A DNA stretch of 19,146 nt. It comes from a virus. The DNA is taken from UHGV virus genome UHGV-1607510. One strand, written 5' to 3'. This document shows, piece after piece, positions 5,470 to 9,251 of this stretch (positions are counted from its first letter, which is position 1; the number at the start of each line of letters is the position of its first letter). The position numbers were made by a program, and so were the translations under genes. The notes under the pieces were generated by a model. The model was given only the letters and a program-made list of their open reading frames with translations. It did no database searches and was not told where the DNA came from.

Positions 5470-6846
5470 TCATACGTCAGCCCCTTGTGCATATCGTCTG
5501 CCACGCGCAGCAGGTGCATTTGATGCTGTGCAAATCTGTCTGGCTTCATCCTGGTCACATGCAACAAAGTGTCCGTTACAGAACCGCTGGTAAACCGTAC
5601 CAAGCGAGCCAAAACGGTTTTTCGTCACAATGATTTCAGCAAATGGCGCGGCGCTACTGTTCTCGTCATATACCGCTTCCCGATAGAGCATGATGATTGA
5701 GTCTGCGTCCTGTTCAATGCTTCCTGAATCACGCAAATCTGCGTTTGTCGGGCGTTTGTTTGGTCGCTTCTCAACATCGCGCGAAAGCTGACTCAGGGAG
5801 ATAACGGGCGTTTTCAGGTCTTTCGCCATCGCCTTCAGGCTTCCGGAGATGTGAGCAATTGCGAGGTCGTTGCGGTCTGCTTTCGGCTTCTCAATCAGAC
5901 CAAGATAATCCACCATGATGAGTGACAGGTTTGGATTTTCCTGTTTGTGCCGTTCTGCGATTGAGCGTATTTCTTCGACCGATAACCGCGAGGCATCGAC
6001 TACCCATACATCCAAATCTGCAAGCTGACTCATGCCGTTAGCAACGCGCGCCCAGCCTTCGTCATCCATCGATGCAGGATTTCGCAGCACGCTAACCGAC
6101 ATCCTCCCGGCGTTGGCAATGCTTCGCTCTGCAATCTGCAATGCGCTCATTTCCATCGAGAAAATCAACACTCCGCGCCGGACGTCAGAACCAGGAATAA
6201 CGCGGCTTGCAACGCCTTCGGCAATCTTCAGCGCCAGCTCGGTTTTCCCCATACCAGGACGAGCAGCGATTATCACCAGGTCTTCTGCGTTCATCCCTCC
6301 GGTGATGGCGTCAAGTTCTTCGATTCCGGTCTTCATGGTATCTGACTCTTCTCCGTTCCTCAGACGCCTGTCAAGCGTGTCAGTGTAGTCAGTGATGATT
6401 TCCCCTAACCGTACAGGTTTAACCTCGTCACGGGGCTTTCTGATGGCTGAGAGACGCTTTACAAGCTCGTCCATCGCCTGACTCGATGTATCGATGGTTC
6501 CGCTCTGAATTGGTTCACGCATTTCATCCATGATTTCCAGCACCAGACGGCGGTGATAGTTATCCGCGACCATTCCGGCGTATCCCTTCAGGTTTGCGGC
6601 ACTCGGGCAGTTCTTACTGGTCATCAGGATTGACGTGAAATGCTCCTCTCCGCACGCCTCGGCAACCATCAGCGCGTCGATTAGGTTTCTGTTTCTCGCC
6701 TGCTTGCGGATAACCTCGAAGGCTTTCCGGTAGAGCGGAATTGAAAACGCTTCCGGCTCCAGCGTTGCCAGAACGTCGCTGGCGGTTGGTGTTAATCCAC
6801 CAATCAGCAGGCCACCGATAACGCTCGCTTCGATATCCTGTCTCAT
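5470..6846 (-). CDS. Replicative DNA helicase, DnaB family (P22 gene 12-like)
   Basis: 458-aa ORF with Walker A ARPGMGKT, Walker B-like LIMVDYLGL and a DnaB-like N-terminal domain. ATGA overlap with the O-like gene stop. Confidence 0.9.
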
Positions 6847-7664
6847 GCAATCCCCCTGTCTGCAAACTTCCCTTCCCGAACTCCCGTTAACGAATCTTCT
6901 CTCAGCAGGTAATCAAAATCGGCCGTCCAGCCCGTGTCGTTGTCTCCGAAGTAAAACGGCTTGGCCTGATGCACAAACGCCCTGACATACGCTCTGAAAC
7001 CGTCCACGTTTGGCGTTTTCAGTTGCGGGATGATTTTCTTCAGGCGGCGTTTGCGTTTCTCGTTGACCGCAACAGCATGTGGAAGTCTGTCACCGACTTC
7101 GGTGTTGTAGGCGTTCAGGAAGGATTCGTAGTCGATTCGTTCTGCCTTGCGACGTTCAGGTTTAACCTGCCCATCGCCGCCCCCGTTAGGGGGTAAGGGG
7201 GTATTTGTATTTATTGTCTTTTGTATATTGTCTTTTGTGTTTAGCTGACTTGGCTTATACCCATTAGCCGACTCGGCTAATGTTTTATTAGCTGTTTTAG
7301 CTAATGTTAAGCTGTCCTGGCTAATCCACTGAGAAACCACCTTGTTCACTCCGATTTTCACGCCATCAGCAATGAGGAATTTACGCTCGATAAGCTGGCG
7401 CTTGGCAGCGCAAACATGAGTGTGATGAATACCTGTCATGGCTGCTATCTGCGTGTTTGTGAGTCGATCCATCGGCTTATTGAATCCGTATGTCTTGCGC
7501 ATGATAGCGAGCATCACCTTCAGCTGCCGGACGGTTAAATCAGCCATCAGCAGACTGTCGGTAATCTCGTTAGCAACGCGCATGAAACCATCTTCGGTAT
7601 CTGCCACGCGATGCTCCACGACCTCCAGTTGAGGCCTGTAATCAGCTAACTTAACGACGCCCAT
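6843..7664 (-). CDS. Replication initiator, lambda O-like
   Basis: 273-aa ORF whose N-terminal domain ([32 protein letters not shown]) resembles the lambda O N-terminus (LTKRQFKVLLAILRKTYGWNKPMDRITDSQL). Iterons and an AT-rich tract are embedded mid-gene. Confidence 0.85.
7199..7240. other. AT-rich DNA-unwinding element of the replication origin
   Basis: gggtatttgtatttattgtcttttgtatattgtcttttgtgt lies immediately downstream (in gene direction) of the iterons, the same order as in ori-lambda. Confidence 0.5.
7241..7324. repeat. Origin iterons: four about 17-bp palindromic repeats TTAGC-N7-GCTAA inside the O-like gene
   Basis: Repeats at 7241-7257 (ttagctgacttggctta), 7264-7280 (ttagccgactcggctaa, perfect palindrome), 7288-7304 (ttagctgttttagctaa) and 7308-7324 (taagctgtcctggctaa), spaced about 20-24 bp apart. 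Confidence 0.7.
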
Positions 7665-7812
7665 GTTTCACTCCTGCTTTGGCTAGTCTGTAAACACCAA
7701 CAAGGCGCTCTGCGAACGCCCTGTTATTTGCTGCGGCTACCACTAATCCCTCAGGTGAATCAGGGTGTCGAATCTCTTCTTTTTCCTGGTATTTCTTACG
7801 ACGTTTTGTCAT
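7651..7812 (-). CDS. Hypothetical small basic protein (53 aa) between cII and the O-like gene
   Basis: ATG 7812..7810 preceded by AGGAG with a 5-nt spacer. Product [53 protein letters not shown]. Its 3' end overlaps the O-like start by 14 nt. Confidence 0.4.
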   Translation of the reverse strand: MTKRRKKYQEKEEIRHPDSPEGLVVAAANNRAFAERLVGVYRLAKAGVKHGRR

Positions 7813-7890
7813 AATTACTCCTGTGGATTGATCCAGTCTTTCTACATCAGGCCTCAAAACTGTTGCAGCAGTCTTGAGGCTTTTCTTTTG
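7810..7890 (+). ncRNA. oop-like antisense RNA overlapping the cII 3' end (promoter tentative)
   Basis: Plus-strand intrinsic terminator GCCTCAA-(16-nt loop with internal CTG/CAG pairing)-TTGAGGC followed by TTTTCTTTTG at 7851-7889, antisense to the last codons of cII. A candidate -10 CATAAT at 7810-7815 would give a 65-75 nt transcript, comparable to the 77-nt lambda OOP RNA. Confidence 0.5.
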
Positions 7891-8125
7891 TCAGCACCAT
7901 GGCTACTTTCTTTGCCAGCTCCGCTAATTCCTCGTCTTCAACACCCCACTCCAGCACAGCCAGAAGCATGGCCATCTTTGGGATAAAACTGTCTTTCCAT
8001 CGCGAAATTTGCGATTCATTAATCCCTAACGCGTCGGCAACCTTTCGCTGACCACGTACAGCAATTCGATTTAGGATGTTGCTTGTAATTGCATTCGCTT
8101 TCTTGCGAGTACTTGTAAGTTGCAT
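7847..8125 (-). CDS. cII: CII-like transcriptional activator
   Basis: 92-aa product MQLTSTRKKANAITSNILNRIAVRGQRKVADALGINESQISRWKDSFIPKMAMLLAVLEWGVEDEELAELAKKVA... from ATG 8125 (AAGGAAAT RBS upstream). The central region matches lambda CII (KSQISRWKRDWIPKFSMLLAVLEWGV). The track ORF is longer and runs through nutR. Confidence 0.8.
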   Translation of the reverse strand: MQLTSTRKKANAITSNILNRIAVRGQRKVADALGINESQISRWKDSFIPKMAMLLAVLEWGVEDEELAELAKKVAMVLTKEKPQDCCNSFEA

Positions 8126-8135
8126 ATGTAAGTAT
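8103..8135 (+). promoter_or_regulatory. pRE-like CII-activated promoter
   Basis: Plus-strand TTGCgagtacTTGT (TTGC-N6-TTGT) lies in cII codons 3-8, followed 12 nt later by TAAGTAT. The spacing and -10 match lambda pRE (TTGCGTTTGTTTGC then CATATGTAAGTAT) as recalled. Confidence 0.5.
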
Positions 8136-8184
8136 TTCCTTAACAAATAAGAAGTTATGCGCATCAAATTATGCGCGTTGTATT

Positions 8185-8227
8185 CCCGCATTTCGGCGGG
8201 AATGAGGACCATGACTGTTAAAGAGCG
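8185..8227 (-). promoter_or_regulatory. nutR site (boxA CGCTCTTTAACA plus boxB hairpin CCCGC-CGAAAT-GCGGG)
   Basis: Minus-strand sequence between the cro stop and cII start: CGCTCTTTAACA-gtcatggtcctcatt-CCCGCCGAAATGCGGG. The boxB is identical to the one upstream of N. Confidence 0.65.
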
Positions 8228-8233
8228 GTGTTA

Positions 8234-8428
8234 CTATTTGTTTTTCTTGTTGCTTGGGAAAGGACGAACTTCCTCTCCAATCACACTGCCATCAGGCTTT
8301 ACCGTAACCATGATGTTACGGCCTGCCAGAATGGCCTTGCTGATAGCGCACTGGATTACACCAAAGTCACTGGCTGCTTTAGCCTGTCCATGGATTTTGG
8401 CGTAATCGGCAAGTGTCATTCGAATCAT
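8234..8428 (-). CDS. cro: Cro repressor (lambda-Cro fold)
   Basis: 64-aa product [64 protein letters not shown] from ATG 8428 (GGAGAG with a 5-nt spacer). Aligns with lambda Cro ([59 protein letters not shown]). Confidence 0.8.
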
Positions 8429-8457
8429 ATGCACTCTCCGTTATTAACCATGAACAA

Positions 8458-8499
8458 AGAATACTACAGGTATTCAAAGCAATCAATACTCAGGGTATT
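8458..8499 (-). promoter_or_regulatory. PR promoter with operators OR1 and OR2
   Basis: Minus-strand -35 TTGATT (8486..8481), 17-bp spacer, -10 TATTCT (8463..8458). OR1 AATACTACAGGTATT at 8460-8474 overlaps the -10; OR2 AATACTCAGGGTATT at 8485-8499 overlaps the -35. Centre-to-centre spacing is 25 bp. Confidence 0.6.
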
Positions 8500-8534
8500 T
8501 TTAGTTTAAGTACCTTAGCTATTAGAATTAAGCT
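8500..8534 (+). promoter_or_regulatory. PRM-like promoter for a leaderless cI mRNA, with possible OR3
   Basis: -10-like TAGAAT at 8523-8528, 7 nt before the cI ATG, with no Shine-Dalgarno. A degenerate operator-like AGTACCTTAGCTATT lies at 8509-8523. This is the lambda PRM arrangement. Confidence 0.45.
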
Positions 8535-9251
8535 ATGGAAAATAAAAAATCACTGACGACAGAACAGCTGGAAGACGCTAAGCGGCTTAAGGCTTTGTAT
8601 GAGTCAAAAAAGAAAGAATTGGGAATAACCCAATACTCAATCGCTGATGAACTGGGTATCACCCAAGGAGCGGTAGGGCATTATCTTAATGGCAGAAATG
8701 CGCTAAACGTTGAGGTTGCATCTGGTTTTGCACGATTGTTGCAAGTCTCAATTGCTGATTTTAGCCAGTCAATTGCTGCCAAGGTTGCAGAACAGGCAGA
8801 AAGCCTTAAGAGCGATGCCAACGTAAGGTATGCAGGGGAATACAGAGCAGGAAAGAGGTATCCGGTGTTAAGCAGTATCCAGGCTGGCTCGTGGTGTGAA
8901 GCATGCGAACCATACACCATTAAAGACATAGATGTTTGGCTTGAGTCTGACGCGCATATTCAAGGTAATGCGTTCTGGCTTAAAGTGGAAGGTGATTCAA
9001 TGACGGCACCGGTTGGGTTAAGCATTCCAGAGGGAACATTCGTTCTTTTCGATACCGGAAGGGAGGCAATCAACGGCAGCTTGGTCATAGCAAAACTTTC
9101 TGACTCTAACGAAGCAACATTCAAGAAGCTGATAATCGACGGCGGAAATAAATACCTCAAGGGACTTAATCCTGCATGGCCTCTCGTGCCAATCAATGGA
9201 AACTGCAAGATTATAGGCGTTGCAATTGAGACAAAACTCAGACTGGTTTGA
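8535..9251 (+). CDS. cI: CI prophage repressor (HTH plus S24 LexA-like autopeptidase domain)
   Basis: 238-aa ORF with HTH (ITQYSIADELGITQGAVGHYLNG), Ala-Gly cleavage site (SIQAGSW), catalytic Ser (VEGDSMTAPVG) and Lys (ATFKKLI). Collinear with lambda CI (TQEQLEDARRLKAIYEKKK...). Confidence 0.9.
   Translation: MENKKSLTTEQLEDAKRLKALYESKKKELGITQYSIADELGITQGAVGHYLNGRNALNVEVASGFARLLQVSIADFSQSIAAKVAEQAESLKSDANVRYAGEYRAGKRYPVLSSIQAGSWCEACEPYTIKDIDVWLESDAHIQGNAFWLKVEGDSMTAPVGLSIPEGTFVLFDTGREAINGSLVIAKLSDSNEATFKKLIIDGGNKYLKGLNPAWPLVPINGNCKIIGVAIETKLRLV

Follow-up and report, generated by a model that had tools for sequence, protein, structure and literature searches.

Palindromic repeats inside the gene of a phage initiator raise the question of whether replication starts at the repeats themselves. 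The DNA analysed here is the virus genome UHGV-1607510, a single stretch of 19,146 nucleotides (hereafter the window), in which a preliminary description, made from the sequence, had placed a replication origin at 7199-7324 inside an O-like initiator gene, composed of four TTAGC-N7-GCTAA palindromes (iterons) and an AT-rich tract. Based on the comparison with related genes and with known origins, the segment 7180-7324 is very probably where theta replication of a lambdoid phage or prophage starts, an origin with the construction of ori-lambda that lies within the gene of its own initiator. The repeats and the AT-rich tract were found in the range given earlier, but the element reaches 7180 and includes a G+C inverted repeat that had not been listed. 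The compared sequences assign it to the lambda family of origins, with the specificity class of phage HK97 and a helicase partner of the P22 type. Its anatomy, its homology in layout and spacing with lambda and P22, and the selection acting on its DNA could be read from the same comparison.

Four iterons in the linker-coding part of the initiator gene

A search with the pattern TTAGCNNNNNNNGCTAA (TTAGC-N7-GCTAA, at most one mismatch allowed) was performed, and 200 shuffles of the whole 19-kb window served as the control. Four sites were found packed in 84 bp (7241-7324; Table 1), compared with a mean of 0.57 matches expected across the shuffled window; none of the 200 shuffles gave five matches, and no second cluster was detected elsewhere in the window by the same scan. 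The four palindromes claimed earlier were therefore present, but only the inner two have exact arms, and the outer two carry one mismatch each. One of the repeats, at 7264-7280, is indeed a perfect palindrome, and it grows to 10+10 nt when its flanks are included (7262-7282). The even spacing described earlier was not strictly observed, as the starts lie 23, 24 and 20 bp apart on the + strand. Read in the gene direction, the start-to-start spacing is 20, 24 and 23 bp (about two helical turns), with starts at gene positions 341, 361, 385 and 408.

The iterons and the AT-rich tract lie within the codons for residues 114-162 of the open reading frame 6843-7664 (minus strand), and the iterons encode residues 114-141. 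The element is thus encoded in the inter-domain linker of an O-like initiator of the Phage_rep_O family, as had been described. A fifth iteron-like site, TTTGCCAGCTCCGCTAA (7911-7927), was found inside the CII-like gene, with one mismatch. It was considered as an auxiliary site and set aside as a probable chance match, because 0.57 such sites are expected and because its mismatch falls at a specificity position.

The repeats are kept as DNA

To compare the repeats among relatives, the IMG/VR database was scanned with an alignment of the N-terminal domain, which gave 80 loci; together with the reference phages, 77 distinct genes of the HK97 class were obtained. Exactly four sites with the spacing 20/24/23 were present in 66 of these 77 genes. 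Functional homologues without the repeats, which the preliminary description had regarded as evidence against an origin, were not seen among the genes with the same recognition motif, all 77 of which keep the repeats; homologues with another recognition motif carry another palindrome at the same place.

The two inner repeats of the window code for LAKTAN and LAESAN, and they lie in a region (residues 111-175) that was predicted by AlphaFold to be disordered, with a predicted local distance difference test (pLDDT) score below 50. Both observations would suit a mere L-A-x-x-A-N peptide repeat in a flexible linker, with no role for the DNA. However, copies of the same DNA motif were found in every reading frame (164, 72 and 73), and the off-frame copies code for unrelated peptides (ISQDSL, YKPSQL). 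In the in-frame copies, the leucine is encoded by TTA in 163 of 164 cases (14% elsewhere in the genes) and the second alanine by GCT in 164 of 164 (33% elsewhere), so that the synonymous positions of the arms are fixed and the centre is free; the 69 distinct 17-mers contain 53 distinct centres, with arms that are nearly invariant. A peptide repeat also gives no reason for the dyad symmetry. Because of the frame and codon data, this explanation was excluded as hardly credible, and the homologous genes indicate that the repeat is selected as DNA and not as a peptide.

The reading frames also account for the imperfect outer iterons. Perfect arms were found in 162 of the 164 in-frame copies. All 72 homologous copies in the frame of iteron 1 (frame 1) have a mismatch at position 15 or 16, because a perfect right arm (GCTAA) would read AGC-TAA and give an in-frame stop codon; all 73 copies in the frame of iteron 4 (frame 2) have a mismatch at position 2 or 3, because a perfect left arm (TTAGC) would read T-TAG, again a stop. 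The spacing shifts the outer iterons into the two remaining frames, and the arms of the HK97 class contain TAG and TAA; iterons 1 and 4 can therefore never be perfect, and stop-codon avoidance accounts for the exact arms being confined to the inner two repeats in the window. This forced imperfection of iterons 1 and 4 may set a lower affinity.

Layout and spacing shared with lambda and P22

The layout proposed earlier, that of ori-lambda with a different iteron sequence, agreed with the comparison: the spacing of 20, 24 and 23 bp and the AT-rich tract occur as in lambda and P22. The annotated iterons of lambda (J02459) start at 39034, 39054, 39078 and 39101, which gives a spacing identical to that of the window, and they also lie in the linker-coding part of a Phage_rep_O gene. 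The iterons of P22 start at positions 353, 373, 397 and 420 of gene 18, and their spacing is the same. The series 20, 24, 23 was also found in one Yersinia and one Providencia phage, and 19, 24, 23 in two further phages. From these sequences, the 20/24/23-bp spacing appears to be fixed from lambda through P22 to the HK97 class. The window differs from lambda in the half-site (TTAGCC(A/G)A in the window, ATCCCTCAA in lambda), in the recognition-helix motif (HHTH vs PVKR), in the C-terminal domain, which is unrelated to that of lambda, in the partner (a phage DnaB-type helicase vs the lambda P loader) and in the dyad (C5/G5 vs the dyad around the EcoRI site of lambda).

The relation to P22 is closer on one side of the element. 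In the P22 record (BK000583), a rep_origin of 145 bp is annotated at 32840-32984 in gene 18; it begins at iteron 1, and the homologous 145 bp in the window are 7180-7324. Over 7155-7248, a stretch that takes in the beginning of the C-terminal domain together with the G+C dyad and the AT-rich tract, the DNA identity between P22 and the window is 89.6%, and the similarity stops at the iterons. The initiators (P22 gp18 and that of the window) are 49% identical overall; the C-terminal domains are homologous, and the N-terminal domains are only ∼43% identical. A DnaB-like helicase of 458 amino acid residues (gene 12) lies downstream in P22 as well. Iterons of the P22 type (TTTACC-N5-GGTAAA) were not found in the initiator gene of the window, even when two mismatches were allowed. 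Given the different iterons and the N-terminal identity of only ∼43%, the origin specificity is expected to differ from that of P22, and the comparison describes a module whose helicase half resembles that of P22 and whose origin-recognition half has the specificity of HK97. HK97 itself carries the same element with point differences only; its iteron 3 has A where the window has G at position 7, so that the palindrome is perfect in the window and not in HK97.

In theta plasmids such as RK2 (oriV), pSC101, P1 and F, the repeats bound by the initiator likewise have an AT-rich unwinding element and a G+C-rich segment as neighbours. The iterons of such plasmids are direct repeats that are bound by Rep monomers; they are situated outside the rep gene, and DnaA boxes are usually required as well. 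An origin of the iteron-plasmid type was rejected for the window, in which the sites are palindromes inside the gene and no DnaA box is near; four one-mismatch matches to the DnaA box were found in the window, compared with 4.1 expected, and the nearest lies ∼500 bp from the origin.

The number of iterons can vary. Five or six iterons of the HK97 type were observed in phiES15 and in four further loci (L080, L084, L047 and L049), in which an in-frame insertion of 36 or 39 nt gives the spacings 20, 24, 36, 24(, 24) or 20, 39, 24, 23. P27 and 933W, both Shiga-toxin (Stx) phages, carry six iterons by way of a 13-residue expansion that holds two iterons (PMC7466680). The expansion in P27 and 933W parallels that of the HK97-type relatives, and the window has the basic four; the six-iteron Stx examples that were studied have lambda specificity, unlike the window. 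For lambda O, P22 gp18 and phage L gp18, the iterons are reported to differ from one protein to the next and to lie within the gene of the protein concerned (PMC8022706).

AT-rich tract and G+C dyad

The 40-bp AT-rich tract that had been reported to follow the repeats in the gene direction was recovered at ∼7202-7240, together with its internal duplication. The tract has an A+T content of 80% and a sense strand rich in A (A26 T5 C9 G2 over 7199-7240). Its direct repeat (7210-7225 and 7224-7239) has a period of 14 bp, and ACAAAAGACAAT occurs twice in it. The GC content of 0.33 in 7200-7299 is the lowest within the two replication genes, and the tract is the third or fourth least stable duplex stretch of 30-40 bp in the window (z ∼3). 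The GC-skew profile gave no informative switch at the origin, where only a dip in composition was seen. Directly after iteron 4 the tract opens with ACACAAAAGACA, and a second ACAAAAGA follows 14-15 bp further on, as in lambda, P22 and the other phages whose spacing was compared; the opening ACACAAAAGACA is common to lambda, P22 and the Klebsiella, Providencia and Yersinia phages. Lambda also has a dyad element after its AT-rich tract.

The C5-TAAC-G5 portion of the G+C inverted repeat of the window occupies 7180-7193, and the dyad end at 7180 coincides with the end point of the rep_origin annotated in P22. Of 86 distinct O-like genes, 69 have an arrangement of the form C4+ N2-9 G4+, at a constant distance of 37-44 nt from where the AT-rich tract begins. 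The codons at the dyad are biased accordingly: CCC makes up 49% of the proline codons there and 7% elsewhere, and GGG makes up 53% of the glycine codons and 23% elsewhere. In a few relatives (L071, L074 and L082), the dyad symmetry is kept with other letters (CCTCCC-AA-GGGAGG, CCCAC-GCA-GTGGG and CCTC-AC-GAGG), so that in these lineages the symmetry is retained by what look like compensatory changes. Genes with a lambda-type C-terminal domain have a different dyad at the same place. The G+C dyad may serve unwinding or the loading of the helicase as a structural landmark.

Predicted recognition helix and iteron arms

In the alignment of the N-terminal domains, the residues just before a conserved C-x-x-A-K differ between groups of initiators, and the iteron arms differ in step with them. 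The motif HHTH goes with the arms TTAGC...GCTAA, which were found in 77 of 77 genes with this motif and in none of nine other genes. APTK or DSTK goes with TTTACC...GGTAAA (P22, PSTNGR2lys), LPHK with TTACC...GGTAA (Klebsiella phage 6 LV-2017, 4A7), SRQN with GTCTC...GAGAC (L085-L087), PETR with TTCCCC...GGGGAA (L088) and PVKR with TCCCTC...GAGGGA (lambda). When the half-sites of HK97, P22 and 4A7 are placed in one register, they differ mainly at positions 3-4 (HK97 TT-AG-CCGA, P22 TT-TA-CCGA, 4A7 TT-AC-CCGA). From these pairs, the four residues at the start of the predicted recognition helix appear to predict the half-site positions 3-4, namely AG for HHTH, TA for APTK/DSTK and AC for LPHK. 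The phage SEN34 offers a natural swap: its N-terminal domain is 67% identical to that of P22 and 44% identical to that of the window, yet it has HHTH and TTAGC iterons. Sequence comparison thus shows a co-variation of the arms with the residues of the predicted recognition helix.

An AlphaFold model of the initiator was built from 27 homologues. Its mean pLDDT was 52.7, and only residues ∼40-110 were moderately confident (60-78). The predicted order is that of a winged helix, with a helix, a second helix (70-77), a third helix (81-93) and a hairpin (97-106), and H80-H81-T82-H83 would start the third helix. A Foldseek comparison with the PDB gave only weak matches (E 0.01-0.07), all to winged-helix proteins of the MarR type, and a sequence search of the PDB with the initiator gave no match.

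Palindromes of this kind could also act as RNA or DNA hairpins, that is, as antisense intrinsic terminators or as mRNA structures that tune the translation of the initiator. A consensus scan of 6800-8600 did place two terminator-like hairpins at 7262-7282 and 7274-7294, both on the + strand. This number is that of chance (shuffle mean 1.8), and the hairpins consist of the palindromes followed by T-rich spacers. Moreover, the arm sequences are conserved across the relatives, instead of varying freely with their pairing retained, and change only in step with the recognition motif of the initiator; this is the signature of protein recognition. A search of Rfam with the whole window, including the OOP-like locus described below, gave no family at the gathering score. 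A role as hairpins is accordingly judged very improbable.

Weighing an origin against a control role

Several findings weigh against the assignment of 7180-7324 as an origin. Duplex stability is lower in the operator regions than in the AT-rich tract, so that the tract does not hold the lowest value of the window. The 77 genes of the HK97 class are phylogenetically related homologues, and counts among them are not independent events. With an AlphaFold model of low overall confidence and weak fold matches, support for HHTH lying on a recognition helix is only moderate. No sigma-70-like promoter was detected in 6800-8600 by a simple consensus scan, and the upstream early promoter was not located. 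Finally, the HK97-type O gene records that were examined, that of HK97 included, carry no annotated origin.

This last point would also suit palindromes that bind the initiator or a regulator for the purpose of control (autoregulation, silencing or incompatibility), with the working origin elsewhere. In line with such a role, lambda iterons together with oop on a plasmid inhibit the replication of an incoming phage (PMC3349717), and an oop-like element is present in the window at 7805-7893. In lambda, however, the same sites are the origin and the control effects are additional. The spacing in the window is exactly that of lambda, the homologous AT-rich tract and the dyad directly abut the iterons and complete the layout of an origin, and the window has no other iteron cluster. 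A role in control alone is for these reasons considered improbable, and the segment 7180-7324 is retained as the probable origin.

Proposed initiation and modularity of the initiator

The steps of initiation are drawn by analogy with lambda and P22, which applies to initiator binding, the order of iteron occupancy, the unwinding of the AT-rich tract and helicase recruitment. Lambda O binds four iterons, the inner two most strongly, and the adjacent AT-rich tract is needed for unwinding; this order of binding was measured for the lambda and Stx O proteins, and the minimal unwinding unit of lambda is given as two iterons plus the AT-rich tract (PMC7466680, which cites Dodson 1986 for the unit). 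In the window, rightward early transcription (leftward in the window numbering, from the cro side through cII and a small orf) would produce the O-like initiator, whose N-terminal winged-helix dimers would bind the four palindromic iterons, probably the two perfect inner ones first. The bound dimers would build a complex like the O-some, and the strain that this complex puts on the negatively supercoiled DNA would open the adjacent tract, with its A-rich and T-rich strands. The C-terminal domain would then bring the phage's own DnaB-type helicase (of the P22 gp12 type) directly, without a loader of the lambda P type, and the host primase and polymerase would take over.

In lambdoid initiators, as known from work with lambda, P22 and phi80 hybrids, recognition of the origin belongs to the N-terminal half and that of the helicase or its loader to the C-terminal half. 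The HK97-type N-terminal domain and iterons were found beside DnaB-like helicases in the window, in HK97 and in a Yersinia phage, and beside lambda-P-like loaders in phiES15 and SEN34; in the related class of the 4A7 type, P-like or DnaC-like loaders lie downstream. Each type of partner comes with a different C-terminal domain. The C-domain cluster of the window lies beside DnaB-like genes in 51 of 55 loci (two of the other four are cut off, and one has a deletion). As far as can be read from these sequences, the C-terminal domain co-varies with the downstream partner, and the module of the window fits the classical lambdoid split of the initiator halves.

A further combination was observed in TL-2011a (L010, 494-1441) and ∼48 Stx2a phages, in which the C-terminal domain of the window and the C5/G5 dyad are fused to an unrelated N-terminal domain. 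The fused domain has His/Ala-rich peptide repeats and no TTAGC iterons, and the recombination junction lies at ∼7220, inside the AT-rich tract. The gene downstream in TL-2011a encodes a hypothetical protein of ∼800 amino acid residues, and not the helicase of 458 residues.

Relatives and distribution of the module

The genes corresponding to gene O in HK97 (gp54), HK446, Nil2, the Stx phages 1717 and 2851 and many Salmonella P22-like phages showed a DNA identity of 98.7-99.4%. The same module, which in HK97 consists of gene O (gp54) and gene P (gp55), is present in HK544 and mEp213, and the origin segment is 97.5-100% identical across these phages. In phage HZ41 the origin segment (201 bp) shows no difference (100% identity), and the segment was found in 398 of 5,426 complete E. 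coli genomes (∼7%) at a coverage of at least 80%. When the whole window was compared, no single phage matched more than 59% of its length, and the window is therefore an ordinary mosaic lambdoid.

The replication module was also observed in a few records filed as plasmids (35-48 kb), among them NZ_CP141750.1 (47.9 kb) and NZ_CP043906.1 (41.4 kb). These records are probably circular phage genomes assembled as extrachromosomal elements. The plasmid-filed records were rejected as independent evidence of plasmid-like replication, as they are mostly circles of 35-48 kb or mislabelled chromosomes.

Novelty and significance

The element is already known in kind, being a textbook-type origin whose gene hardly differs from its counterpart in well-known phages, and with near-identical copies in many sequenced phages and in ∼7% of the complete E. 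coli genomes it is therefore not new. An explicit description of the HK97-class iterons was not found in the open-access literature; the genome papers of HK97/HK022 (doi 10.1006/jmbi.2000.3729) and P22 (PMC94795) lay outside this search. The only parts that might be new are the fixed spacing, the imperfection forced by stop codons, the correspondence between motif and half-site, and the G+C dyad. None of these four rules was found stated in the searchable literature, and it is nevertheless rather doubtful that all four both hold and are undescribed. If they are, sequences could be used to tell the origin specificity of co-resident prophages and the cross-reactivity between them.

The understanding of lambdoid replication is unchanged by this origin, and its main value lies in annotation, with 7180-7324 as the replication origin of the HK97-type replication module. 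This module is common in E. coli, Shiga-toxin phages included, and the replication of Stx prophages drives the dosage of the toxin gene. Specificity classes shared by initiators and iterons could help to predict cross-activation or interference between co-resident prophages; the six iteron classes that were matched to recognition-helix motifs form a small, testable table of specificity.

Initiator gene, helicase and neighbouring genes

The coordinates of the origin and of the replication genes are listed in Table 1.

Table 1. Parts of the putative origin and the replication genes of the window
Feature	Position	Strand	Sequence or evidence
Iteron 1 (gene order)	7308..7324		sense TTAGCCAGGACAGCTTA; right arm with 1 mismatch; starts at codon position 2
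Iteron 2	7288..7304		sense TTAGCTAAAACAGCTAA; exact arms; codes L-A-K-T-A-N
Iteron 3	7264..7280		TTAGCCGAGTCGGCTAA; perfect palindrome; codes L-A-E-S-A-N
Iteron 4	7241..7257		sense TAAGCCAAGTCAGCTAA; left arm with 1 mismatch; starts at codon position 3; adjoins the AT-rich tract
AT-rich tract, presumed DNA-unwinding element	7202..7240		composition, stability, homology to the lambda/P22 tract
G+C inverted repeat	7180..7201		sense C5-TTA-C5-TAAC-G5; far edge of the AT-rich tract; codes P-L-P-P-N-G-G
Initiator gene, O-like, 273 amino acids	6843..7664	-	Pfam Phage_rep_O; 98.9% DNA identity to HK97 gene O (gp54)
N-terminal DNA-binding domain, residues 19-113	7326..7610	-	Pfam PF04492, full model length, E 5.8e-33
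C-terminal domain, residues ∼166-273, P22 gp18 type	6846..7169	-	presumed helicase contact
DnaB-like replicative helicase gene, 458 amino acids	5470..6846	-	Pfam DnaB_C 1e-78, DnaB N-terminal 4e-13

The helicase gene lies directly downstream of the initiator gene, and no loader of the lambda P or DnaC type was found there. The C-terminal domain of the initiator matched no Pfam family. The stop codon of the initiator gene and the start codon of the helicase gene overlap as ATGA (6843-6846), which suggests translational coupling.

A small orf and a CII-like gene (7847-8212) lie upstream in the gene direction, as does a CI-like repressor gene (8535-9251), which is encoded on the opposite strand. 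This arrangement is the early-right layout usual for lambdoids, and the gene order cI / cro / cII / orf / O / helicase fits it. As in lambda, the origin is found downstream of the immunity region, at ∼1.2 kb from its cro side. The small orf between cII and O (7651-7857, minus strand) is the counterpart of HK97 gp53 and P22 orf48 and matched no Pfam family; it probably starts at an ATG (7813) that lies in the conserved oop motif. At 7805-7893, an OOP-like antisense RNA locus overlaps the 3' end of the CII-like gene. The lambdoid oop promoter/5' motif (33 nt, taken from PMC3349717) was matched at 33 of 33 positions at 7805-7837 on the minus strand, and a strong hairpin followed by UUUUCUUUU was detected at 7849-7882 on the + strand (z -3.3).

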